64,000 nucleotides of DNA from Clostridiales bacterium (GCA_003524095.1 DOEE01000003.1:89171-153170), one strand, 5' to 3'. Shown: positions 6,870 to 57,919, counted from the first letter of the stretch. The notes: generated by a model not told the origin, from the sequence alone. A program made the numbers and translations.

Positions 6870-7973
6870 ATGAAAAAGATAATATTTTTATTTTTGCTGA
6901 CACTATTTTGTTTGTGCGGATTATCTTCAAACCAAAATCTAGTGTACGCGAGTGACAAACTTATTATTACTTTTGATTTTAATTATGAAAGTATTGATAA
7001 GGCTTTATATAATACACTTCAAAACAAGCAAAGTATTGTGCAAAAAGAATATTTGTTTAACGAGCAAATTGAGTTTCCTAATGTCGATCCAGACCTAAAT
7101 GATTTTTATCAATATTACTGGACTTTAAATGGTCAAAAAGTTAATGAACTTTCTCAAGTTGCAAGTAGTAATGTTACTTACAAACTCAAAACCAGTCCAA
7201 GAAAATACACCATCTACTATGTTCTTTCGGACAAAGAACAAACCGAAACGTTAAATTACAAAGAAACCGAAACTTATTCTATTGAAAACGAGGTTCACTT
7301 TTATATACCCCAAAGACCAAATTATTATTTTATTGATTGGTACTTGACAAGGACTCTAACTGAAGGTCAAGCCAAAATGCAAACAACCAAGTTTGATAGG
7401 GGCGATATAATTTTGTATCCAAAGTGGATACCTATAGAATTTGAAATAAACTACCACACCGATGCCGAAAATCTATATAACTTGCCTAGTTATAATGTTG
7501 AAACCCAAACTTTTGAACTTCAACCTATTTCCAAGCATGGTTACATTTTTAAAGGGTGGTTTTATGATGAAAAATATTCCGTCCCAGCCACAAGAATAGC
7601 CAAAGGAACAGTTGGACAAATAAACCTTTATCCAAAATGGGATTTGCAAAAATATGTGGTTACATATATTTTGCCCGATGGTAGCACCGAAAAATATTTG
7701 GTTAAATATGGACAATCTGCAGACAAGCCCAATTTGAAATCTAACATGTTTAACATCTTGACATATAGTAAATCTACACAAAACATAACCGATGACACAA
7801 CTATTGTTATTAAGTATCACAATATCTGGTATGTATATGTGCTGGGTTTGACTTTGATAGTTGGGATAACATTAGGATTAATCTATTCTGCCAACAAACG
7901 AAAAAAGAAAATTCAAAATCTAAGAATGATTTATGCTTCAAAAAGACAAAATAAAAGAAGGTTATTTAAATAA
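6870..7973 (+). CDS. secreted, C-terminally anchored protein with Listeria-Bacteroides (Flg_new / InlB B-repeat) type repeats
   Basis: Signal peptide present. Repeats of the form Y.I.Y...G..F.GW (YFIDWY, GYIFKGWFYDEKY, YVVTYILPDG). C-terminal TM helix plus a basic tail. Confidence 0.6.
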   Translation: MKKIIFLFLLTLFCLCGLSSNQNLVYASDKLIITFDFNYESIDKALYNTLQNKQSIVQKEYLFNEQIEFPNVDPDLNDFYQYYWTLNGQKVNELSQVASSNVTYKLKTSPRKYTIYYVLSDKEQTETLNYKETETYSIENEVHFYIPQRPNYYFIDWYLTRTLTEGQAKMQTTKFDRGDIILYPKWIPIEFEINYHTDAENLYNLPSYNVETQTFELQPISKHGYIFKGWFYDEKYSVPATRIAKGTVGQINLYPKWDLQKYVVTYILPDGSTEKYLVKYGQSADKPNLKSNMFNILTYSKSTQNITDDTTIVIKYHNIWYVYVLGLTLIVGITLGLIYSANKRKKKIQNLRMIYASKRQNKRRLFK

Positions 7974-9370
7974 TGAAGGAAGAAAAAGAAGTCGGGGTAT
8001 TTAATAGTTACTCAGGCTATAACAAACTAAAAATAATTGGTATCTCAATTCTGATATTTTTGGTGGCATCGACACTGCTTTATATGTTTGTAAAATCGCT
8101 ATTTAAATATACGGTTACATACAACTTTAATGGCGGACAAATTTATAAACAAGAACTCAAATCTGATACTTATAGGTTTTTGCAAAAAGTTAATGAACCA
8201 AAGAAGGTCAAAAAAGAAGGATATTATATTGAGTATTGGAGTAAAGACGAAAATTTTAAATCAAGATTCAAATTTGGCAGTCGAATTTGGAATAGTTTCA
8301 CACTTAATGTAAAATGGGCTGATGGTGTTGCAGTAAGGCTTCATTTTGCCGAAGGCGAAGAAAATTCGGATATGCCACTTGACGACTTGAAAGGATACTA
8401 CGAACAATATGTCAAACCCGGCTCGAAATATTCCTTGCCACTTGTATTTAATACCAAGGAAGGTTCGCATTACGGTGAACAACTACTTTGGTATGATAAT
8501 CCAGAATGCACAGGAACACCTTTTGCCGAAAAAACCTATGAGTTAAACGAAAACATTGATATTTATGGTGCTTGGTTTGATACTGACTCAAGCAAGTTTG
8601 AAGTCGACGAAAATGGAGTTCTCAATAAATATTTGGGATATTGTAACAAAATAATTCTTCCAAATAATATTAAGAAAATCAAAGATATAGCGCCAGATAG
8701 GTTTAGAACGGGTGCAAGTGATGGAATTCATGATAGCGCAGGAATTTATCAAAGTGCATGGGCAAATGTAATTTCTGATGAAACTGGACTTTATGGGGGA
8801 CTTAGAATAGTATATATTAATAGCGAAATGGAAACGCTTGGCGATTGTGCATTCAGAGATTGCAAGGCACTTGAAAAACTTATTTTTTTAGGTGACAATA
8901 TTTCATCAATTGGAAAATATGCTTTTGCAAATTGTCAAAAAATTTCATATTTTGATTTGCCAACCAAGGTGACTGAGATTAAGGAAGGAACATTCCATAA
9001 TACTTTTGCAATAAACAAAAAAGTTGAAATGTATCTAGCAAATGTAACAACGATTTCTGATAATGCTTTTCAAAATTCGCATGTTGCCAAAATTACTTTG
9101 CCAAAAGTTACTTTTATTGGCAAGGGGGCATTTAAAGCCTGCAATTATTTGACAAATCTTACGATTTTAACTCCAAATACGGTAGTTATATCAAATTATG
9201 ATGGAACGAATGATAAACTTAATACTAATAGCATTTTCTATGGTGTAACTACAGACACATCAGTTGTGACGCACTTAAAAATTTATGTTCCACATAATCT
9301 AAAACCAAGTTACTTGACTAAGATTTATTGGAATATGTACAGTGATATAATTTATGAAAGTGAACAATAA
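7973..9370 (+). CDS. membrane-anchored Flg_new repeat plus BspA-type leucine-rich-repeat protein
   Basis: The start overlaps the upstream stop (TAATG). N-terminal TM helix. EGYYIEYWSKDENF repeat. The BspA/LRR_5 pattern is IGDCAFRDCKALEKLIF..ISSIGKYAFANCQKISYFDLP. Confidence 0.65.
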   Translation: MKEEKEVGVFNSYSGYNKLKIIGISILIFLVASTLLYMFVKSLFKYTVTYNFNGGQIYKQELKSDTYRFLQKVNEPKKVKKEGYYIEYWSKDENFKSRFKFGSRIWNSFTLNVKWADGVAVRLHFAEGEENSDMPLDDLKGYYEQYVKPGSKYSLPLVFNTKEGSHYGEQLLWYDNPECTGTPFAEKTYELNENIDIYGAWFDTDSSKFEVDENGVLNKYLGYCNKIILPNNIKKIKDIAPDRFRTGASDGIHDSAGIYQSAWANVISDETGLYGGLRIVYINSEMETLGDCAFRDCKALEKLIFLGDNISSIGKYAFANCQKISYFDLPTKVTEIKEGTFHNTFAINKKVEMYLANVTTISDNAFQNSHVAKITLPKVTFIGKGAFKACNYLTNLTILTPNTVVISNYDGTNDKLNTNSIFYGVTTDTSVVTHLKIYVPHNLKPSYLTKIYWNMYSDIIYESEQ

Positions 9371-9983: not shown

Positions 9984-11846
9984 ATGGATTTTGAAAAATT
10001 AGAAGAATTAAAGAAAAAATATTTAGACGAAGTTAATTTTAGAAAAAACATTGAAGGTGCTAATGTAAGTTACAAATACGACATTATGGTTTGTGGCGGA
10101 ACAGGTTGTCGTAGTTGCAAAAGCAAACGTGTTCAAGAAAAATTGACCGAAGTAATTTCCAGAAAGGGTTTGAGCAAAGATATTGCGGTTCATGGAGTTG
10201 GGTGTTTTGGACTTTGTGTTAATGGTCCGATTGTGCTAATTTATCCACAAGATGCAATGTATGTCAAAGTTACAGTTGACGATGTTGAAGAAATTGTAAG
10301 TAGTCTCGAACAAGGTCAGTTGGTTACAAGACTACTTCCCGAAGACAATGGACAAAAAGTTTACAAAAAGAACGATTTGCAATTTTGCAAAAAACAAAAA
10401 TATATTGCAAGAAATAATGCTGAATATATGAGTCTTGATAATATCTTGGGAGATTATATTGCTCTTGATGGATATTTAGCATTATACAAAGTATTAACTT
10501 CAATGACTCAAGACGAAGTTATTAATTTAATCAAAGAAAGCGGACTTCGTGGTCGTGGTGGTGCAGGATTTTCAACCGGTCAGAAATGGGAGTTTACAAA
10601 AGTCAATGACGCTCCACAAAAATATGTAATTTGTAATGCTGACGAGGGTGACCCCGGTGCTTTTATGGATAGAAGCATAATAGAAAGTAACCCGCATGCA
10701 ATCGTCGAAGCAATGGCTATTGCTGGCTATGCAATTGGTGCAAGCAAAGGCTACGTTTATTTGCGTGCAGAATATCCACTGGCTGGCGAAAGACTACAAG
10801 ATGCAATAAATGAAGCAAGCCGAATGGGGCTTTTGGGGAAAAATATTTTTGGAACAAAATTTAATTTTGATTTGGAAATTAAATTTGGTTCGGGAGCATT
10901 TGTTTGTGGCGAGGAAACGGCACTTATGCACAGTATTGAAGGAATGCGTGGAGAGCCAACCTTAAAGCCACCATATCCAGCCGAAAAAGGATTGTATGGT
11001 TGTCCTACTGTAATAAATAACGTTGAGACTTTGGCTAATGTGGCACAAATTATCAATAATGGTGCTTCGTGGTTTAACTCAATAGGAACAAATGATAGCA
11101 AAGGTACCAAAGTTTTTGCTTTGACTGGAAAGATAAAAAATTCCGGACTCATTGAACTACCTATGGGAACAACAATAAGAGAAATCATCTATGATATTGG
11201 TGGTGGCATTCCTAATGACAAAAAGTTTAAAGCGGTTCAAATGGGTGGGCCAAGTGGTGGCTGTATTCCTGCTGAATATTTGGATACCCCAATCGATTAC
11301 AAGAGTCTTAGCGAACTAGGTTCAATGATGGGTAGTGGGGGAATGATTGTTGTCGACGAAGATAGTTGTATGGTTGATTTGGCAAAATTCTTCTTGCAAT
11401 TTACAGTTGATGAGAGTTGTGGAAAATGTACACCATGTAGAATTGGAAACAAACGAATTTTGGAAATCTTGACAAAAATTACCGAAGGCAAAGCGACAAT
11501 GGAAGACTTAGACAAACTCGAAGAACTTTGCAAATATGTCAAAGATGACTCGCTTTGTGGACTCGGACAAACCAGTCCAAATCCAGTTTTAAGCACTCTT
11601 AGATATTTTAGAGATGAATATATTGAACATATTCAAAATCATAAATGTAGAGCGGGAGTTTGTAAGGCTTTAACAAGTTATGTAATCACTGACAAGTGTA
11701 TAGGTTGTAGTGCTTGTAGCAGAGCATGTCCAGTTGGTGCAATATCTGGTGAAATCAAAAAGAAATTTAGTATCGACCAAAACAAATGTATTAAATGTGG
11801 TAAGTGCTATAATACTTGTAGATTCGGTGCTATTTCAAAGGAGTAA
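9984..11846 (+). CDS. hydB: NuoF-like flavin/FeS subunit of [FeFe] hydrogenase
   Basis: GLRGRGGAGFSTG (FMN/NADH site), ESCGKCTPCR, and a C-terminal 2x[4Fe-4S] ferredoxin motif CIGCSACSRACP..CIKCGKC. Confidence 0.9.
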   Translation: MDFEKLEELKKKYLDEVNFRKNIEGANVSYKYDIMVCGGTGCRSCKSKRVQEKLTEVISRKGLSKDIAVHGVGCFGLCVNGPIVLIYPQDAMYVKVTVDDVEEIVSSLEQGQLVTRLLPEDNGQKVYKKNDLQFCKKQKYIARNNAEYMSLDNILGDYIALDGYLALYKVLTSMTQDEVINLIKESGLRGRGGAGFSTGQKWEFTKVNDAPQKYVICNADEGDPGAFMDRSIIESNPHAIVEAMAIAGYAIGASKGYVYLRAEYPLAGERLQDAINEASRMGLLGKNIFGTKFNFDLEIKFGSGAFVCGEETALMHSIEGMRGEPTLKPPYPAEKGLYGCPTVINNVETLANVAQIINNGASWFNSIGTNDSKGTKVFALTGKIKNSGLIELPMGTTIREIIYDIGGGIPNDKKFKAVQMGGPSGGCIPAEYLDTPIDYKSLSELGSMMGSGGMIVVDEDSCMVDLAKFFLQFTVDESCGKCTPCRIGNKRILEILTKITEGKATMEDLDKLEELCKYVKDDSLCGLGQTSPNPVLSTLRYFRDEYIEHIQNHKCRAGVCKALTSYVITDKCIGCSACSRACPVGAISGEIKKKFSIDQNKCIKCGKCYNTCRFGAISKE

Positions 11847-11848
11847 AT

Positions 11849-13540
11849 ATGAAAGTAAATTTAACTATAGACGGCATTCCTGTTGTTGCTGATTCTAATG
11901 ATACAATTTTGGAAGTTGCCAAAAAAGTCAAAATAGATATTCCAACACTTTGTTTTCTCAAAAATATTAATGAGCCTGCTAGTTGTAGAATTTGCGTTGT
12001 TGAAATCGAGGGTCTCAAAAAACTTATGACGAGTTGTACTACCAAAGTTAGAGAAGGCATGGTTGTCAAGACAAATTCAAGTAGGGTAATAAACGCTAGA
12101 AAAAAAGTTATGGAATTGCTTCTTAGCAACCACAACAAAAACTGTCTTAATTGTCCAAAAAATCTTAAGTGTTACTTTCAGTCTCTTTGTGAAAAATTTA
12201 GTGTGGATACTGAAAGATATGCGGGTGAGACATCATCTAATACTATTGATGACTCAAATCATGCAATTGTTAGAGATGACAGTAAGTGTATACTTTGTGG
12301 CAAATGCATATCTGTTTGTGCCAAAAGACAGGGGTGTAGTGCAATAACTAAGATTAATCGTGGATTTGCAACTAAGATAGGAACGGCTTTCGATAGACCA
12401 TTGCAAGAGAGTCCTTGTGTAGGTTGTGGACAGTGTGTCTTGGTTTGTCCTACAGGCGCTCTTACTCAAAAAACTGAGATTCATGAAGTGCTAGATTTAC
12501 TAGACGAAAAAGATGTAATCAAAGTTGCTCAAGTAGCACCTGCAGTAAGGGTTGCAATTGGCGAAGAGTTCGGTGAAAAAATAGGTTCGTTTGCCGAAGG
12601 AAAAATGGTGTCGGCACTCAAAGCAATTGGTTTTGATTATGTCTTTGATGTTAATATGGGTGCGGACTTTACTGTTGTGGAAGAAGCAAACGAATTGATT
12701 GAAAAATTGACATCGGGCAAAGGTCTTCCTTTGTTTACGAGTTGTTGCCCAGCATGGTTTAATTATTGTGAAAAGTTTTATCCAGACTATGTCAAAAATT
12801 TGTCGACATCTAAATCTCCAAATGAAATGCTTGGAAGTTTGGTTAAGTACTTTTTTGAATCACAAGGCAAAAAAGTTAAAATTGTATCCATTATGCCTTG
12901 TACTGCCAAAAAGCGAGAAATCCTTGCAAGGGGAACAATAGACAAGAGTTTGACCACAAGAGAACTTGCACAATTAATTAGACTCAAGAGTATTAATTTT
13001 GAAAGACTCGATGATTCCAAGTTCGATGATCCATTTGGGGAGTATACTGGTGCAGGTCTTATATTTGGTGTAACTGGTGGTGTAACTGAAGCTGCCCTTA
13101 GATATGCAACGTACAAACTCACTGGCAAAAAACAAGATATAATCGAAAGTGTTAGATATAGCGATGGAGTTAAGGAAGTTACTGTTAATCTTGGCGACAA
13201 AAAATTAAATCTTGCAATTGTTCATGGACTCTCCAATGCTCCAAAGGTTATGGATGCACTTCAAAGTGGCGACAAAAAATATGACTTTGTAGAAGTTATG
13301 GCATGCCCAGGTGGTTGTGTTAATGGCGGTGGTCAGCCTTTTGTTGATTATAACTTACACGACGTTAATGAAGTTATACTCAAACGTAGTCAAAGCATTT
13401 ATAATGCTGATGGAAATATGAAGTTCAAAAGCACCGAAGACAACAAAGGTGTTAAGAAAATCTATAAAGATGTTTTGCATGATGACAAAGCACTTATTCA
13501 TGAACTTTTGCATTATGAACATGACAAAAATATTTATTAA
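11849..13540 (+). CDS. hydA: [FeFe] hydrogenase catalytic subunit
   Basis: N-terminal 2Fe-2S ferredoxin fold. H-cluster motifs TSCCPAW, MPCTAKK and ACPGGCVNGGGQP. Confidence 0.92.
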   Translation: MKVNLTIDGIPVVADSNDTILEVAKKVKIDIPTLCFLKNINEPASCRICVVEIEGLKKLMTSCTTKVREGMVVKTNSSRVINARKKVMELLLSNHNKNCLNCPKNLKCYFQSLCEKFSVDTERYAGETSSNTIDDSNHAIVRDDSKCILCGKCISVCAKRQGCSAITKINRGFATKIGTAFDRPLQESPCVGCGQCVLVCPTGALTQKTEIHEVLDLLDEKDVIKVAQVAPAVRVAIGEEFGEKIGSFAEGKMVSALKAIGFDYVFDVNMGADFTVVEEANELIEKLTSGKGLPLFTSCCPAWFNYCEKFYPDYVKNLSTSKSPNEMLGSLVKYFFESQGKKVKIVSIMPCTAKKREILARGTIDKSLTTRELAQLIRLKSINFERLDDSKFDDPFGEYTGAGLIFGVTGGVTEAALRYATYKLTGKKQDIIESVRYSDGVKEVTVNLGDKKLNLAIVHGLSNAPKVMDALQSGDKKYDFVEVMACPGGCVNGGGQPFVDYNLHDVNEVILKRSQSIYNADGNMKFKSTEDNKGVKKIYKDVLHDDKALIHELLHYEHDKNIY

Positions 13541-19334: not shown

Positions 19335-19422
19335 TGGCGCAGAGACCGGGATTTGAACCCGGGGTACGTTTCCGTACACAGCCGTTCCAAGACTGCACGA
19401 TCGACCACTCTGACATCTCTGC
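19335..19422 (-). tRNA. tRNA-Ser (anticodon GGA), class II, CCA encoded
   Basis: Hand-folded. The acceptor GCAGAGA/TCTCTGC is 7/7 paired, with G73 and CCA. The anticodon arm is CAGTC-TTGGAAC-GGCTG. The long variable arm is GTACG-gaaa-CGTAC and the T arm is CCGGG-TTCAAAT-CCCGG. The D stem is poorly paired (see findings). Confidence 0.8.
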
Positions 19423-25710: not shown

Positions 25711-25725
25711 AGGTTGGGAGAAAAT

Positions 25726-27189
25726 ATGAAGAATTGGATTTGCAAAATAATGTTTGTTTTGATACTACTGGTTGGTGTTTTTTGTGTTCATGAAAACTCT
25801 TTGGTAGTAGACTCTACAAACACAAATCGCGTTTTGTTGGCACAAGAAGGCGAAGGTGGGGGAGAGACTGCAGAACCAGGTCAAACTGAGACCGAAAAAG
25901 AATTAATCAAACGTATTGATACAGATATCAAAGTCGGTTATCCTATTCAATCTACAACCGATATAACAGATACGAGACTATATAGCGCTTTGCTTAATGT
26001 TATCAAAAAATATGTGTTAGACAAGTATAATTACAACTATTCAACATTAGATACACTCTATAGCAAAATGTTTGTTGATATTGAAAGTATCGAAATCGTC
26101 GATTATGATATGTCATCACTCAAAGGACTAGATATTATTTACTTCAATAATCTTAAAACTCTTAAGATAGTTGGAAATAGTTTTGGAGATTTAACTACTG
26201 ACGAATACAAAGGTTTGTTTGAACGTATGCCACAACTAGAGACTTTGGATTTGTCTAACAATAATATTAATGCAATTAGTCTCAAAAATGCAACAAATGT
26301 AAAAAATTTAAATTTGAGTTCAAACAACTTATCTCAAATTGATTTGTCTAATCTAAAAAGTGCAGATTTGGATATTAATATTGCAAATAACAATTTTTCA
26401 AGCATCAAACAAATCGGACTTCCAACCAAAACCGACCTTATTAATTCAATTAAACTAAATATAATCATGAATAATATTACTGACTTGTCCGAAGAGTTTG
26501 TAAACTACTCAAAACTAACTTTGGATATAGGCTTGCAGGGAATTGTTGGAAAAACTCAAAAAGTTGTTCTTACAACAAGTGATACATTAACTTTTTATAA
26601 ACTTAACAAAGGCGGTGTTTATGCCAAGATTTATAAATCGGCAGTTAGAGACACTCTTGTAAGAACGATTAAAGATGATGTGGACTATACAGATAGCGAT
26701 AAGGTTGTGATTAATTTGCCGGTTGGTGAATATTATGTCGAATACTATTTGGGAGATAATGCAATTGATTATCAAAACGACAGAACTTATGGATACTTCC
26801 AAAAATATTATTTTCAAGTAATCCCAAATGTTTGTGACATTAAGTATGAATACAAAGGCAAAATTTATGATAATTTTACACGCAAAGTAACTGGCAAAGT
26901 CAAAGTGCTATTGTCATGTGAAGAGGGTGGTGAAATTTATTATAAAATAGGCAACGGGGAATGGATACAAGGCAATGAAATAATGTGTGACAGGGGTGGA
27001 GATTATAGCATTACAACCAAGGTTGTTATTGACAATATTTCAAGTGAAGAAAAGAGTATTTTAATCAAGACTTCGCTTAATCTAATCATTCCAGATATTT
27101 TGATGCTAATACTAATTTTGTTGTTTGCATTAACACTATTTTTGGTTGTTGTGCCATTGGTTAGCAAAAAATGGTTTAGAAAATCTTAA
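25726..27189 (+). CDS. leucine-rich-repeat surface protein (internalin-like) with C-terminal membrane anchor
   Basis: SD GGGAG before ATG 25726. Signal peptide. 22-residue LRRs LDLSNNNINAISLKNATNVKNLNLSSNNLSQIDLSNL. C-terminal TM plus basic tail. Confidence 0.7.
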   Translation: MKNWICKIMFVLILLVGVFCVHENSLVVDSTNTNRVLLAQEGEGGGETAEPGQTETEKELIKRIDTDIKVGYPIQSTTDITDTRLYSALLNVIKKYVLDKYNYNYSTLDTLYSKMFVDIESIEIVDYDMSSLKGLDIIYFNNLKTLKIVGNSFGDLTTDEYKGLFERMPQLETLDLSNNNINAISLKNATNVKNLNLSSNNLSQIDLSNLKSADLDINIANNNFSSIKQIGLPTKTDLINSIKLNIIMNNITDLSEEFVNYSKLTLDIGLQGIVGKTQKVVLTTSDTLTFYKLNKGGVYAKIYKSAVRDTLVRTIKDDVDYTDSDKVVINLPVGEYYVEYYLGDNAIDYQNDRTYGYFQKYYFQVIPNVCDIKYEYKGKIYDNFTRKVTGKVKVLLSCEEGGEIYYKIGNGEWIQGNEIMCDRGGDYSITTKVVIDNISSEEKSILIKTSLNLIIPDILMLILILLFALTLFLVVVPLVSKKWFRKS

Positions 27190-31462: not shown

Positions 31463-32677
31463 ATGAAAATTTTAGAAACAAATGATTGGAAATATAAAAT
31501 TCCTTTTGATAATGTGACTTACAAAAATGTCAAAAGGTATAGCCTTATGCTTAATACTTACGAAAGAGAAATTATGAATAAACAAATTGATTTTTTCCGT
31601 AAGCATTTTTCTATCTTGCAGGTAATGGAACATTTTTCAAAACTCAAGACCAAATCGGACAAAGAGACTTTTATAAAGGCTGTTCTCAAAAGACAAAATA
31701 ATATTTACTTTCTTCCAAATACACTCAAAAGTTATATGCTTAAAAAGGCAAGAACGGAGTTTTCGGAGTACAAAGCTTTTTTTGAAATATTAATAAACAA
31801 AGCACTTAATCAAAAAAAGACTAACATAATAGTTCCATTATATAAATCGGTTCTCTTGGATTTTTATCCAAATGTAATTAGACTCATAAACAAATATCGA
31901 AAGCAAAAAGAAATTCCAACTAGCAAAAAAATGCTTAAACCCGAGGCTATAGAGTATTACGCTAGAGATTTAATTCATGAGTTGCAATTTGACTATAAGT
32001 TATCTCAAGTTTATGGAAGAAGTTCAATTAGACGTAGTGTTCCAATTTCGATTGTTGATGATTATGGCTATGGTGAATGGATAAGCAAAAACGTAACTTA
32101 TAATAACAATAGATTCTTTATTTATTCAAATCATCAAAGACTTACAGATGTTGAACTTAGGCATATGGTTTACTTTAATGTCTATCCGGGATATGCACAC
32201 TTTTATAATACCGTTGCTGATGATAAGACCAAAAATACTTGTTTTGACAACGGGGCTACACTAATTTTGAATGGCTGGGCGTTGTATGCTATGTGTCGTA
32301 ACAAAAATACAGCATATTCTCAAAACTTCTTGATTGAAGGCACGAATATTGCTCATATGTTGCTTAAATCTAATTTGGAAAAGGCATATGAAAGCGTCTA
32401 TGTATATTTACTTGGAAAATATCCAAAATCAAAGGCGATAGATTATATGCTAGACTACACTCAAAAACCGGGGCATTATTTGAGTTATGTTTTGGGAGAA
32501 CTATCAATTGAAACCGCTTTTTCAAAAGGCTTTGCCAGCACTCCAATTGAATTTTTGAATAATCTTAAGCAAATTAATATAGGCGATTATATTTGTTTGT
32601 ACTGTCCAAAGAAACAAAAGAAAATCGGAAAGAAAATAATTACTAGTAGAGTGGTGGATAAATTTTTTAAAGTATAA
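31463..32677 (+). CDS. hypothetical protein, remote DUF885-like
   Basis: YPGYAHFYN, NGWALYAM and YTQKPGHYLSYVLG resemble DUF885 blocks (HE..PGH, EGWA.Y, PGQA..Y..G), but the His/Glu positions are not conserved. Confidence 0.35.
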   Translation: MKILETNDWKYKIPFDNVTYKNVKRYSLMLNTYEREIMNKQIDFFRKHFSILQVMEHFSKLKTKSDKETFIKAVLKRQNNIYFLPNTLKSYMLKKARTEFSEYKAFFEILINKALNQKKTNIIVPLYKSVLLDFYPNVIRLINKYRKQKEIPTSKKMLKPEAIEYYARDLIHELQFDYKLSQVYGRSSIRRSVPISIVDDYGYGEWISKNVTYNNNRFFIYSNHQRLTDVELRHMVYFNVYPGYAHFYNTVADDKTKNTCFDNGATLILNGWALYAMCRNKNTAYSQNFLIEGTNIAHMLLKSNLEKAYESVYVYLLGKYPKSKAIDYMLDYTQKPGHYLSYVLGELSIETAFSKGFASTPIEFLNNLKQINIGDYICLYCPKKQKKIGKKIITSRVVDKFFKV

Positions 32678-32836: not shown

Positions 32837-33646
32837 CTACAATTCTTTCGTGCTATCTATTTCAAAATTTTTGTCAAATTTTTGATAATTTCCATCAAGA
32901 TTACATGCAAAAACATAATTCTTACTAAATCTAATTTTGGGGTCATGTTTTTTAAGTATTGGTGCCCAGTTTTTGGTGAGGCCTTGTGGGGCATCGCATC
33001 CGCACAGTTTCAAAAAGTATGGTTTTTTTGCAACCGCACAACTAGCAACAATTGGTTCAATAGCAGAGCAGGGTTTGTTGCCTATAATCAAGTCATAATC
33101 GTTGACATTATCAAGTGGGTGGTTGAAGTATCTGTCTAGCGGGTTTATATTTAGGTTTTTTAGGGTTTCGTCAGATAATACAAATCTATCCATTGAAGTT
33201 AGATTATCAAAATCTTGCGCAAGGACTATCGAAGAATAAGGGACTCTTCCGCTTCCAACTTCCAAAATTTTTGGCTTGTTAGAACCTATATAATGTTCAA
33301 CAACTTTGACAAAGTCTTCTTGTTCTCGTCTATAATAATCCATAAATGAATTGTTAATAATGCCCAAATCGCATGCGAGTTTGTTGGCTGTGTTGAGTAG
33401 TGCTATTGAATCGTGTTTAGAAATATTTCCCGATGAATCTCTGTCTACTCCAATTGTAAAATATTCTATATTTTCTTTTACAAAATCTCTAAAGTCAAAT
33501 TTGTTATGTTCAAAAAACTCGCTGTACTTCGTAAATTCCAAACTCGTATAAACCTTAAAAAGATGTTCAATATCATACTTTCCATAAAAACCATAATCAT
33601 GGTCTTCGAGTTCTTTTTTTAGTGTTAAATAAGTTATTGTTTTCAT
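32837..33646 (-). CDS. hypothetical protein with Rossmann/SAM-MTase-like glycine motif
   Basis: KILEVGSGR resembles methyltransferase motif I. ATG 33646 (MKTITYL) is preferred over GTG 33661 because of the consensus promoter just upstream. Confidence 0.45.
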   Translation of the reverse strand: MKTITYLTLKKELEDHDYGFYGKYDIEHLFKVYTSLEFTKYSEFFEHNKFDFRDFVKENIEYFTIGVDRDSSGNISKHDSIALLNTANKLACDLGIINNSFMDYYRREQEDFVKVVEHYIGSNKPKILEVGSGRVPYSSIVLAQDFDNLTSMDRFVLSDETLKNLNINPLDRYFNHPLDNVNDYDLIIGNKPCSAIEPIVASCAVAKKPYFLKLCGCDAPQGLTKNWAPILKKHDPKIRFSKNYVFACNLDGNYQKFDKNFEIDSTKEL

Positions 33647-33671: not shown

Positions 33672-33700
33672 ATTATACTCCAGCATTGGCCAAAAGTCAA
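33672..33700 (-). promoter_or_regulatory. consensus sigma-A promoter TTGACT-17-TATAAT
   Basis: Read on the minus strand: TTGACT tttggccaatgctggag TATAAT, about 25 nt upstream of ATG 33646. Confidence 0.7.
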
Positions 33701-33819: not shown

Positions 33820-34038
33820 TTATCCACATTTGCACAACTAAATTTTTATAAATTTTTGCGTATATTTATTAAAAAGTGTATAATTTTTCATAAAAATGTA
33901 TAAAATCGGGTAAAAAGTAGCGAAGTTATCCACTTATCCACATAAAACATGTGATTTATGCACAGTGTTAGTTTGAAAAAGTTTCTAAAAGTGATGTAAA
34001 AAATGGCTAAATGTGGATAACTCAAAAAGTTATCCACA
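33820..34038. promoter_or_regulatory. DnaA-box cluster (6 boxes)
   Basis: TTATCCACA at 33820, 33934 and 34030. TTATCCACT at 33926. TTATGCACA at 33956. TGTGGATAA (reverse orientation) at 34012. AT-rich tracts lie in between. Confidence 0.8.
33856..33884 (+). promoter_or_regulatory. candidate promoter TTGCGT-17-(TG)TATAAT reading into the DnaA boxes
   Basis: An extended -10 (gTGtATAAT) was counted directly. No plausible ORF lies downstream before the antisense VanW 3' end. Confidence 0.4.
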
Positions 34039-34128
34039 TAAGAATTCAAAAAAATCGCATATAATCACGGTCTTAACATTGTTTTTGTAATGTATAAAAT
34101 TATGGTTATATGCAATATTTTTCAACTT

Positions 34129-35595
34129 TTATTCATAAACGATTCTGACGCCACTATCTATAGGTTCAATTCCTGCTGGCAAATCTTCGCACCCTTCAAT
34201 TACAACTCCACGTTGTGGGCTATAGATTTCGTGACGAATTAATGTTTCGTCTATCATTTTGTCACCCATATATCTTTGAAGATATGCTTTGGCAACATAT
34301 CCGTCTTTTGGATAACTTACCCTAAAGTACTCACCTTTGAATAATACTTTGCTTGTGTATTTTTTGTCGGTATCTAGGATAACTTTGTCGCCAGTTGATT
34401 TTAGTGTTTCAATGGTTTCGCTTCTTGTTTTGTAAGTGTAGTCGGGAGTGTGTGAGAAAATATCTACCGAAACACTATTTTTGTCCGAATAAGTTTTGAT
34501 ATAAATAGGATAATCAGAAGTGTTTGTAAACTTTAAATCGGCAGTATATTCAGCAACCATTGCATCAAGTCCGAGTGGAACATATTTAACAGGAAGGGTG
34601 TGCTTGTGAACTTCGTCAATTTGAACTCCGCTAAGTAGCAAAGCATTATATAATGTCGTGCTTGCCTGACAAATTCCACCGCCAATGCCTTCAGTAAACT
34701 CTCCGTTGTATATAATTGTTGCAGGCTTGTATCCATTTTGTGTGGTGTGTTCTCCAATTATTTCATTGAATGAAACGGATTGTTTTGGCGCTACGACAAA
34801 ACCATTAAATTTGGATAATGCGAGTTTTACGTTGTGTTTTCTGCCACCAGTGCTGTCTGCTACTTTGGTTGAAAATGTTGCTATTTTCTGTGTTAAACTA
34901 ATATTATATTCTTTGGTGGTTGTAGGAACTTCTTCTATATAGTCAAGAGTTACATTTATTTTGTTTGAAGTCAAAAATTGTTCGTTAATATCTCTATATA
35001 ATTTTTGTTTGTTGACGCGTTTGCCATTTTCGCTGTCGCTAATTTCAAATGGGTTTTGACTATCTGGCATAAATGTGATGACGCTTGAAATTGGGTCTTT
35101 TTCAACTTCGTCTAATATTTTTTCGATTTTTTCGTCCAGTCCTGTGAAGATATAATTGAAAGATACGTTTATCGAACCGCCCTTTTTGTTAAACTGAGAC
35201 AAAAAATCCAAGTCATTATCCAAGTTGTTTTTGAGTTCATTTTCGTCTTGACTTGCTTCCAAGATTGTATGAATATCTGAGTTTACTTTCAAGTCGTTTT
35301 TGTCAAAAGTCCAAGTTTTGTCACTCTCTCTATCTTTGATGGATAATTCAAAGTCCTCGGCTTTTTCTTGAAAGTTACTGAGCAAGACAACTTTGGCTTC
35401 GTCTTTTGACATGCCAGAAAGATTAAGCCCATTAATTACAGTTCCATTGTGCAAAGTCTTGTTGGTGTTCTTGTCTAAAATCAAAAATTGACCAATAATA
35501 ATGGCAGTTATTGCTAGTGTGCAAAGCGTAAGTACTGCCAAAACTTTATTGGTCTTTTGTTTTGATGTTTTTGTGGCAACCATTGTCTTTTTCAT
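34129..35595 (-). CDS. VanW family protein
   Basis: N-terminal TM helix. VanW core GGGICQASTTLYNA. SD GGGAG before ATG 35595 (the ORF-track TTG at 35607 is less likely). Confidence 0.85.
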   Translation of the reverse strand: MKKTMVATKTSKQKTNKVLAVLTLCTLAITAIIIGQFLILDKNTNKTLHNGTVINGLNLSGMSKDEAKVVLLSNFQEKAEDFELSIKDRESDKTWTFDKNDLKVNSDIHTILEASQDENELKNNLDNDLDFLSQFNKKGGSINVSFNYIFTGLDEKIEKILDEVEKDPISSVITFMPDSQNPFEISDSENGKRVNKQKLYRDINEQFLTSNKINVTLDYIEEVPTTTKEYNISLTQKIATFSTKVADSTGGRKHNVKLALSKFNGFVVAPKQSVSFNEIIGEHTTQNGYKPATIIYNGEFTEGIGGGICQASTTLYNALLLSGVQIDEVHKHTLPVKYVPLGLDAMVAEYTADLKFTNTSDYPIYIKTYSDKNSVSVDIFSHTPDYTYKTRSETIETLKSTGDKVILDTDKKYTSKVLFKGEYFRVSYPKDGYVAKAYLQRYMGDKMIDETLIRHEIYSPQRGVVIEGCEDLPAGIEPIDSGVRIVYE

Positions 35596-35705
35596 AATAA
35601 CTCCCAAAGTAAAATATAATTACCTTAGTTTGCCACTAAAACTATTTAAATATTCTAATAAATTTAGCCAAGTTGAGACTAGATTGACGAAATAAATTTC
35701 AAACC

Positions 35706-56926: not shown

Positions 56927-57919
56927 ATGTCTTTTGCAACCAAAGCAAAGTTGGAAGTTTTGAAAGAAAATATCGAAAATGATTGTTGTTCGATAGCTTT
57001 TTTGAGTGCAATTATTAAGTGTTCGGGAGAACTCAGTATTTCGTCTAATCATCAAATTAAAGTTGAAATATTCACTGAAATTCCCGAACTTTTTGACAAA
57101 ATAAAACACATAATTGAACAGTACTACGGCAAAGTTTGTGAAATGTCTATGATGGAAAATACAAATATCTCAAGGTCGAGTAGATACAAAATAACTTTGC
57201 CTTATGATATAACAGACCAATTACTCAAGGATTTGGGAATTATGTCAATTGACCAAGACGGAATGCTTGCTATCGAAAATGGAATTGCAGATTTTTTGAT
57301 TATGGACGATTGTTGCAAACGCAGTTATGTCAAAGGTGCTTTTGTGGCATGTGCTACTAGCAATATTGTAATCAAAAATTATAATAACGATAGGGGTAGC
57401 GGTTATCACTTGGAGTTTGTATTCAATTTTGACAAAATTGCCGAAGACTTTTTGAAACTCCTTAGTAATTTTGACATAACTGCCAAAATAACAACTCGAA
57501 AAAATTCGCCTATTGTATATATCAAAGAATATCAATTAATATGTGATACCCTTGCACTCGTTGGAGCAAACAAAGCAGTACTTGATTTGCAAAATGAAGC
57601 GGCAATTAGAGAACTTAGAAACAATGTTAATAGACAAAATAATTGCCTTAATGCAAATTTAAACAAAACTGTTCAAGCCTCAGTTAAACAATTAAATGCG
57701 ATTAAGAATATCCAAGATAATATGGGGCTGGAGAGTTTGAGTGAAAATCTTATGGAACTAGCATTGCTAAGACTTGCAAATCCAGAAGCGACATTGGAGG
57801 AGTTAAGACAATTATCCACACAGAAACTAACAAAAAGTGGTGTCAATCATAGGTTTGCAAAAATAATTGAAATTTCAGATAATATTACCAAAAACAAATT
57901 TAAAATTACTACACTCTAA
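56927..57919 (+). CDS. whiA: DNA-binding protein WhiA
   Basis: LAGLIDADG-like N-domain pattern, YVKGAFVACA, and a C-terminal HTH (LTKSGVNHRFAKI). Confidence 0.85.
   Translation: MSFATKAKLEVLKENIENDCCSIAFLSAIIKCSGELSISSNHQIKVEIFTEIPELFDKIKHIIEQYYGKVCEMSMMENTNISRSSRYKITLPYDITDQLLKDLGIMSIDQDGMLAIENGIADFLIMDDCCKRSYVKGAFVACATSNIVIKNYNNDRGSGYHLEFVFNFDKIAEDFLKLLSNFDITAKITTRKNSPIVYIKEYQLICDTLALVGANKAVLDLQNEAAIRELRNNVNRQNNCLNANLNKTVQASVKQLNAIKNIQDNMGLESLSENLMELALLRLANPEATLEELRQLSTQKLTKSGVNHRFAKIIEISDNITKNKFKITTL

Follow-up and report, generated by a model that had tools for sequence, protein, structure and literature searches.

A module of six DnaA boxes, located at 33820–34038 of the 64-kb window (the whole stretch of DNA that was analyzed, which comes from an uncultured member of the Clostridia of the human gut), is common, from its first box to its last, to 11 distinct lineages of uncultured gut Clostridia. 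Because non-origin DnaA-box clusters are already known, what is new here is a geometry that is fixed to the base pair, an AT-rich array enclosed by the boxes, a constant place after vanW, and a lineage-specific occurrence. The block as a whole is under purifying selection and lies away from the replication origin. We suggest, with about even confidence, that it is a stand-alone DnaA oligomerization platform that regulates DnaA in trans, like the DBCs of Bacillus or datA of Escherichia coli.

Results

The window holds one dense cluster of DnaA boxes

A re-scan of the sequence recovered all six boxes that the first-pass annotation had placed at 33820–34038, four of them perfect and two with one mismatch. 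The plus strand has perfect copies of TTATCCACA at 33820, 33934, and 34030, and the minus strand has one at 34012; the one-mismatch boxes are TTATCCACT at 33926, which overlaps the next box at an offset of 8 bp, and TTATGCACA at 33956. The window contains 6 perfect boxes compared with 0.87 expected from dinucleotide-preserving shuffles, of which 0 of 100 reached 6, and four of the six fall inside 220 bp. With up to one mismatch allowed, the richest 250-bp stretch holds 6 boxes, all at 33820–34038. A comparable density in many intergenic regions, which the annotation had said would make the cluster unremarkable, is absent within the window, where no other 250-bp stretch has more than 2 boxes. 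The AT-rich tract reported among the boxes was likewise borne out, with 14.5% GC at 33840–33915. Judged by the oriC box criterion of at least three DnaA boxes with a mean spacing of less than 100 bp (PMC7561715), the cluster is dense enough for an origin, having six boxes with at most one mismatch in 219 bp; as a dense, intergenic cluster of consensus boxes outside oriC, it is also of the DBC type.

The left anchor of the module is box 1 (33820–33828, plus strand), a perfect TTATCCACA that is also perfect in 10 of the 11 family members and reads TTATCCACT in locus L032. Offset from it by 8 bp is box 1' (33828–33836, plus strand), a weak box, ATTTGCACA, that matches 6 of the 8 specified positions. 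A conserved AT-rich spacer (33837–33925), enclosing weak reverse-oriented boxes, repeats, and a dyad, separates these from boxes 2 and 3, a tandem pair composed of TTATCCAC and TTATCCACA (33926–33942, plus strand), again at an 8-bp offset. Box 4 (TTATGCACA; 33956–33964, plus strand) is TTATCCACA in more distant members and is followed by the motif GTTTGAAAAAGTTTCTAAAA (33971–33990, plus strand), which is conserved in the family alignment and TTTCGAwAA-like in other members. Box 5 (34012–34020, minus strand), a perfect inverted box, stands head-to-head with box 6 and forms an inverted repeat with it, and box 6 (34030–34038, plus strand), a perfect TTATCCACA, is the right anchor and faces the stop codon of vanW. 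Measured from box 3, box 1' lies at 106 bp, box 4 at 22 bp (past box 3), and box 6 at 96 bp, and box 4 and box 6 are 74 bp apart. Because all of these spacings are near multiples of 10.5 bp, the strong sites would lie roughly on one face of the helix.

The geometry of the module is conserved across 11 lineages

Loci L004–L007 were fetched via the 269-aa protein encoded beside the module (protein identity of 88, 59, 47, and 33%, respectively), and loci L011, L013, L016, L017, L022, L025, and L032, together with the close copies L020 and L029, came from a DNA pattern scan of metagenomes. All fetched family loci carry the module. The tandem pair is invariant across the family apart from one base in L006, a result to be read in the light of the pair having been part of the search pattern of the metagenome scan; the window and L004–L007 were found independently of that pattern. 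When the window was aligned with L004–L007, no gap occurred from box 1 through box 6, and the mean pairwise identity over this block was 0.7–0.96 per 20 columns compared with 0.3–0.5 in the intergenic DNA that flanks it. The spacer columns, also gapless, have a mean pairwise identity of 0.85–0.91 per 20 columns, and the CACA of box 1' is invariant in this alignment.

Across the 11 lineages, the boxes keep fixed positions relative to the tandem pair: −105, +1, +9, +31, and +105. Box 1 is at −105 in nine members and at −95 in L017 and L032, and box 6 is at +105 in 9 of the 11, with 0–2 mismatches. At the place of box 1' (−97), the forward site has 5–7 of 8 matches across the eight members profiled. 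Box 5 (+87) is strong only in the window's own clade, the matches of the reverse site being 8, 8, 8, 7, 5, 1, 7, and 7 of 8. In L017 and L032, the most divergent members, the spacer is shorter by a net 10 bp, with alignment gaps at differing spots. Because 10 bp is about one helical turn, the helical phase is kept in these two loci.

Compared with the window copy, the element has an identity that ranges from 0.83 in L005 down to 0.55 in L032, matching that of vanW first codon positions (0.85 to 0.54) and well above that of vanW third positions, which are effectively saturated (0.52 to 0.35); the immediate flanks have an identity to the window copy of 0.14–0.67. A profile search gave exactly one element in each locus, and a second copy was thereby discounted. 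A plasmid, phage, or E. coli relative was ruled out in the three collections searched because blastn against plasmids, phages, and 5,426 E. coli genomes returned no match to the element.

The vanW-like gene is the only constant neighbor of the module

The cluster occupies a 467-bp gap between two minus-strand genes. On the box 6 side lies the VanW-like gene (34129–35607, minus strand; Pfam PG_binding_4 and VanW domains), the last gene of a block that consists of a cca-type nucleotidyltransferase, a histidine phosphatase, and vanW. In all members whose flanking sequence is long enough to tell, tblastn places the module immediately past the 3' end of vanW, box 6 being the box closest to the stop codon; VanW identities across members are 41–82%, and vanW is the sole constant neighbor. 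The gene on the other side (32837–33646, minus strand) lies outside the module and is variable. In the window and L004–L006, it encodes the 269-aa protein, which has no sequence match in Pfam, NCBIfam, or the PDB and has 15 homologs among 5.8 billion proteins. In the predicted structure of this protein (pLDDT 91.9), the C-terminal half adopts a class I SAM-methyltransferase fold, which fits the label "Rossmann-like" given to the gene in the first-pass annotation. An SDR gene takes its place in L011, L013, and L016, and the neighbor is convergent in L007 (a 189-aa gene) and L032 (a membrane phosphatase-like gene); in these last two loci, the module is intact though no promoter faces it. The cluster is thus kept where the 269-aa gene is replaced, in L007, L011, L013, L016, and L032. 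Because the neighbor varies and can be convergent, the module is not simply the promoter of the adjacent gene.

Two promoters had been proposed in this region, and they fared differently. The promoter-like TTGACT-17-TATAAT of the 269-aa gene (33672–33700, minus strand) was recovered by our scan at 33700–33672, matching at 11 of 12 positions. The site is 120 bp away from box 1, beyond the edge of the conserved block, and in the alignment only the close relatives L004 and L005 share it. The plus-strand promoter at 33856–33884 was not listed by the scan because its −35 hexamer, TTGCGT, matches at only 3 of 6 positions. We rejected this candidate, the hexamers of which vary among relatives (the −10 reads TATAAT, CATATT, AATATT, TATAAA, or CATAAA). 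A DnaA-regulated promoter of the dnaA or sda type would be expected to be overlapped or adjoined by the boxes and to keep its association with the regulated gene, whereas here the nearest promoter is 120 bp away and the downstream gene varies. Hence, of the two roles originally offered, a titration or regulatory cluster is the likelier, and that of a DnaA-controlled promoter for the adjacent gene is weakened by the replacement of the neighbor.

The same observations bear on the broader possibility that the module is a cis-acting transcriptional element at which bound DnaA sets local transcription according to replication status, be it by blocking or terminating transcription at the end of the vanW operon, by regulating the next promoter from upstream, or by driving an antisense transcript into vanW. 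Inspection of the alignment revealed no conserved hexamers for a right-edge promoter reading antisense into vanW, nor are there any within the block, and the box positions overlap no promoter. Moreover, the element stays unchanged although the downstream gene differs by lineage and, in L007 and L032, is either missing or convergent, and the distance from box 1 to the next start codon varies. A cis-acting role would nevertheless fit a module that always follows vanW at its 3' end, box 6 being toward the stop, and a co-directional gene with its own promoter is found within 130–350 bp in most lineages. A scan between the vanW stop and box 6 also found no canonical intrinsic terminator, and several B. 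subtilis DBCs are sites at which DnaA regulates transcription (PMC3245932). We consider a cis-acting role unlikely, although it is the main rival of the platform acting in trans.

The AT-rich spacer resembles an array of weak DnaA sites

The weak reverse-oriented boxes of the spacer are at 33843, 33857, 33875, and 33895, and their places are conserved. The spacer also contains three ATGnATAwww repeats, with the G at 33860, 33878, and 33898, and an imperfect 26-nt dyad with arms at 33844–33869 and 33880–33905. The repeats are the reverse complement of the box core TATnCA, and their variable base coincides with the degenerate position 5 of TTATNCACA. Reverse 9-mers that match at least 6 of the 8 positions of TTATNCACA number 7 in the spacer of the window compared with 1.34 in shuffles, and such enrichment was detected at P < 0.02 in 9 of the 11 members, as measured against mononucleotide shuffles and among family members that are statistically non-independent. 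Further, some of these sites are good boxes in distant members (TTATGCACA, TTATTCACA, or TTATACACA at about −40 in L013, L017, and L032). Because the weak reverse boxes are both enriched and conserved in place, the AT-rich tract resembles an array of weak DnaA sites with strong anchors on either side, an arrangement that follows the same logic as E. coli oriC. Conservation extends to the bases between the weak sites, which the array reading leaves unexplained. No exceptional helical instability of the 76-bp tract was found: the least stable 60-mer of the spacer ranks 349th of 63,940, similar to other intergenic DNA.

The invariance of the bases between boxes, together with the 26-nt dyad and the three ATGnATA repeats, raises the possibility that the main function of the module is exerted by another DNA-binding protein (a nucleoid-associated protein, a Spo0A-like protein, or a segregation factor) at the spacer and the 33971–33990 motif. 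Such an arrangement would have parallels in E. coli, in which datA and DARS2 depend on sites for IHF and/or Fis next to the boxes. We regard it as very doubtful here, given that the strongest and most conserved features of the module are canonical DnaA boxes and that the repeats themselves resemble degenerate DnaA boxes.

The module has origin-type parts but is not an origin

The view that the cluster is not the active chromosomal origin was confirmed. GC skew is +0.113 to the left and +0.113 to the right of the cluster (30 kb each), its sign does not change across the cluster, and cumulative skew climbs monotonically over the window. As had been noted, genes are mainly on the plus strand, with 44 kb of coding sequence compared with 12 kb on the minus strand. 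In none of the ten loci examined does the skew change sign from one side to the other; it is positive in the window's clade and negative in L016, L025, and L032. The vanW-element block therefore occurs in either orientation relative to replication, which speaks against a function that depends on the direction of the fork and, in every lineage, against an origin. A low-stringency DnaA probe gave no match in the window or in any family locus. Because the same probe strongly detected dnaA beside a box cluster in the control loci L014/L021/L024 and L027, the negative result is meaningful. In agreement with it, a Pfam scan of the 30 larger ORFs of the window returned neither DnaA nor DnaN, and the earlier claim that no dnaA is nearby stands. 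With an unswitched skew and no dnaA nearby, the module is not oriC and lies away from the replication origin.

We also considered a latent, accessory, or relic origin that is able to unwind and that fires conditionally or did so formerly, in the manner of Pseudomonas oriCII. Box 1 and box 1', followed by three variable bases and then by AT-rich DNA, resemble the Firmicute unwinding module, and their 8-bp offset may be like that of B. subtilis boxes #6 and #7. In the Firmicute module, boxes #6/#7 are accompanied by a short GC cluster, by DnaA-trios, and by AT-rich DNA (PMC8287927, PMC6669920, and PMC7561715), and the rule for a basal unwinding system (BUS) calls for a box with up to 2 mismatches that is followed, after no more than 16 bp, by three or more DnaA-trios, 3'-NAN-5', with the consensus 3'-GAT-5' (PMC8287927 and PMC7561715). 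A loose BUS pattern was found in 10 of the 11 members, yet 39–64% of shuffled spacers (∼50% overall) passed as well, and a canonical 3'-[G/A]A[T/A]-5' trio run was found in 1 of 11. The box-to-trio orientation used was that of the B. subtilis sequence. The loose rule is thus non-discriminating.

The core formed by the tandem pair, 13 nt, and a third box recurs directly upstream of dnaA in the unrelated contigs L014/L021/L024 and L027, indicating that this layout is used by DnaA at real origins. With the incC/oriC2 regions of Firmicutes that carry a BUS, the module shares a strong and a weaker box, a short variable spacer, AT-rich DNA, and distant phased boxes, and in B. subtilis incC, distal boxes act via helically phased loops (PMC6669920). 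Unlike those regions, the module is off the skew switch in every lineage and not beside dnaA or dnaN, lacks canonical trios in 10 of 11 members, and has its AT-rich DNA between boxes rather than beside them; many intergenic stretches are as unstable as its spacer. We therefore conclude that the element has origin-type parts but fails the defining tests of an origin, and a latent origin appears to us very improbable. An active oriC displaced from dnaA, for which the dense boxes with AT-rich DNA and the separation of oriC from dnaA in some bacteria, e.g. E. coli (PMC8287927), could be cited, is hardly credible in view of the equal skew on both sides, the mainly plus-strand genes, and the inversion of the element relative to skew between clades.

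The block is non-coding and gives no sign of a structured RNA

In the block aligned from the window and L004–L007, variable columns are distributed 27/30/30 over the three phases. Because this distribution has no 3-base periodicity, the block is non-coding, and a hidden small ORF was rejected on the same grounds, including the 53-aa ORF at 33888–34049 (minus strand) that runs over the boxes. For a structured RNA, the RNAalifold covariation term was unfavorable (+3.68), and the paired columns were either invariant or broken. A scan of Rfam at gathering thresholds was empty. Below threshold, rliA (RF01464) matched 34011–34204 (plus strand) with 30.2 bits (E = 4e-4 in a 700-base search) compared with a gathering threshold of 50. 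This match includes an exact AT-rich 16-mer, is driven by boxes 5 and 6 read as a hairpin, and extends into the vanW coding sequence. It did not recur in the orthologous loci L005, L006, L007, L013, and L016, and rliA is specific to Listeria monocytogenes (PMC1807966); we take the match to be due to chance. A small RNA of the rliA type or a small protein, to which the 30.2-bit match and the 53-aa ORF would point, is accordingly an explanation to which we give next to no credence.

Discussion

The platform proposed at the outset would work as follows. Boxes 1, 3, 4, and 6, with their partners 1', 2, and 5, would serve as high-affinity and roughly helically phased DnaA anchors, between which the weak reverse boxes of the AT-rich spacer would fill cooperatively, resulting in a DnaA oligomer or looped complex ∼220 bp long. 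Such a complex may sequester DnaA or modulate its activity in trans, so that, once the locus has been replicated, less free DnaA would be available for oriC, a role that has been demonstrated for the non-origin clusters of B. subtilis and for datA. The binding of DnaA is predicted here from matches to the consensus, and we likewise infer that the oligomer forms and that initiation is affected. Transcription nearby might be influenced in addition, for instance if the complex stops read-through past the end of the vanW operon or adjusts the promoter that comes next, but this would fall outside the conserved function.

A pure titration sink would require boxes alone. The near-invariant bases between boxes (e.g. 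TTATAAATTTTTATG) and the 33971–33990 motif point to an extra constraint, for instance a second protein, a requirement for unwinding, or a defined DNA shape. Nor does a role in trans explain why the module is so strictly linked to the 3' end of vanW.

A more far-reaching proposal is that the module is a fixed-geometry DNA regulator of DnaA, the first in Firmicutes, and either a counterpart of datA/DARS or a dormant second origin. The anchors would then load DnaA onto the weak array and the AT-rich DNA, thereby changing the activity or the nucleotide state of the initiator instead of only titrating it. If true, this would account for the conservation of every base of the spacer, but we judge it quite unlikely.

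The proposed oligomerization platform has its closest precedents in B. subtilis and E. coli. In B. subtilis, six non-origin DBCs bind DnaA stably, and their joint deletion leads to early initiation (PMC3245932), and Firmicutes are thought to regulate DnaA mainly via cooperative binding (PMC4447404). Like the module, the DBCs are dense, intergenic clusters of consensus boxes in a Firmicute and outside oriC, and the window likewise carries tsaD (gcp), 4.3 kb from the cluster. They differ from the module in having no sequence homology or shared neighbor gene with it, and a geometry fixed over the whole block, spacer included, was not found described for Bacillus DBCs in the literature searched. 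The DBCs generally lie around oriC, five of the six being origin-proximal, a comparison that for the module covers the 64 kb of the window; the contigs of loci L001 and L002 reach about 300 kb farther in the direction of the origin.

The E. coli elements datA (reportedly described in a 1998 paper by Kitagawa), DARS1, and DARS2 are likewise non-origin box modules with a defined number, orientation, and spacing of boxes. They change the amount of active DnaA in trans, datA through hydrolysis of DnaA-ATP and DARS through release of ADP. Their box layout differs from that of the module, and, as the search of the 5,426 E. coli genomes revealed, there is no blastn similarity. Pseudomonas aeruginosa oriCII, like the module, is an origin-like box cluster that is not the active origin. 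It lies upstream of gidA, and DnaA regulates the neighboring genes there (PMC13438810). Whereas oriCII precedes the promoter that it regulates, the module follows the 3' end of a gene and can sit between convergent genes. Searches of the literature found no comparable DNA element for the control of DnaA in Clostridia.

As the module also illustrates, a locus with dense boxes and AT-rich DNA can look like an origin without being one, which is of consequence when origins are predicted automatically in metagenome-assembled genomes. Control of DnaA by chromosomal elements has been well worked out only in E. coli (datA and DARS) and partly in B. subtilis (DBCs). The hosts of the module are uncultured, and what goes beyond its anatomy is inferred. 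Overall, because it is conserved at the level of first codon positions, with fixed boxes and only net 10-bp changes, the module offers a precise template for DnaA oligomers outside the origin in these gut Clostridia, one that specifies which boxes may anchor the oligomer, which weak sites may fill, and what role the AT-rich core may have.

Box layout shared with dnaA-upstream regions

The TCCACTTATCCACA-N13-TTATNCACA core of the module was also found immediately upstream of dnaA in unrelated metagenomic contigs that served as control loci for the DnaA probe (at 5044-5079 in L014 and 270-305 in L027, and also in L021 and L024). Because the core occupies this position in unrelated contigs, a tandem pair of boxes offset by 8 bp, followed by a third box 22 bp further on, is a layout that recurs at real dnaA-upstream regions.

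Elements around boxes 4 to 6 of the module

Between box 4 (33956) and box 5 (34012, minus strand) of the conserved non-coding module lies the motif GTTTGAAAAAGTTTCTAAAA (33971-33990), which is conserved across the family and in its distant members reads TTTCGAAAA- or TTCGAT-like. This motif may bear a loose likeness to a reversed Spo0A '0A box' (TGTCGAA). Further, box 6 (34030) is abutted by an AT-rich inverted repeat (arms 34038-34067 and 34103-34132, each of 30 nt, 80% complementary), which spans the stop codon of the VanW-like gene (34129-35607, minus strand) and is kept in close relatives only. For the vanW operon, this repeat could serve as a terminator-like hairpin, though a weak one.

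Genes beside the module

The family of the 269-aa protein encoded at 32837-33646 (minus strand) is very small, with 15 proteins at E<=1e-3, and neither Pfam nor NCBIfam has a model for it. For the 269-aa protein, AlphaFold predicts with high confidence (pLDDT 91.9) an N-terminal helical domain followed by a C-terminal class I SAM-methyltransferase fold; the motifs invariant in the family include LEVGSGxxPYSS and KPCSAI, and three cysteines (C193, C215 and C217) are likewise invariant. The 404-aa ORF at 31463-32677 (plus strand) had no match in Pfam or NCBIfam and is conserved, with 78% identity, beside an HTH gene in the related module-bearing locus L005.

Other DnaA boxes in the window

One of the two perfect TTATCCACA boxes elsewhere in the window (57812-57820) lies within the 3' end of the ORF at 56927-57919, ∼55 bp ahead of the earliest possible start of the dnaE ORF (57867) and ∼120 bp before the dnaE ATG (57934). 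A lone DnaA box so close ahead of the gene for the replicative polymerase may have a regulatory role, or it may have arisen by chance. A perfect box at 10241-10249 and a TTATGCACA box at 10924-10932 both fall within the gene for a NuoF-like subunit (9984-11846), which adjoins an [FeFe]-hydrogenase gene (11849-13540); these boxes are isolated and are probably chance occurrences.

Wider context of the locus

Two independent assemblies carrying the same locus, L001 (ERZ918885 k127_55442) and L002 (ERZ28572343 scaffold_1), both stop ∼300.5 kb past it, on the side that the replication fork comes from. Their common end point is suggestive of a repeat present at that place in both, which may be an rRNA operon; because both contigs extend this far, there is origin-ward sequence of 300 kb or more for whole-contig skew analysis.

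Within the window, ARAGORN placed a tRNA-Ser (GGA) at 19335-19422, whereas scanning all of the window with Rfam at gathering thresholds gave zero matches. In the related loci L006 and L007, tRNAs were detected by the same Rfam tool in 'evalue' mode, and the conflict is a discrepancy between tools with no evident biological explanation. Listeria-Bacteroides repeats and BspA-type leucine-rich repeats, which are typical of gut-associated Firmicutes, occur in several predicted surface proteins encoded at 6870-9370 and 25714-27189.
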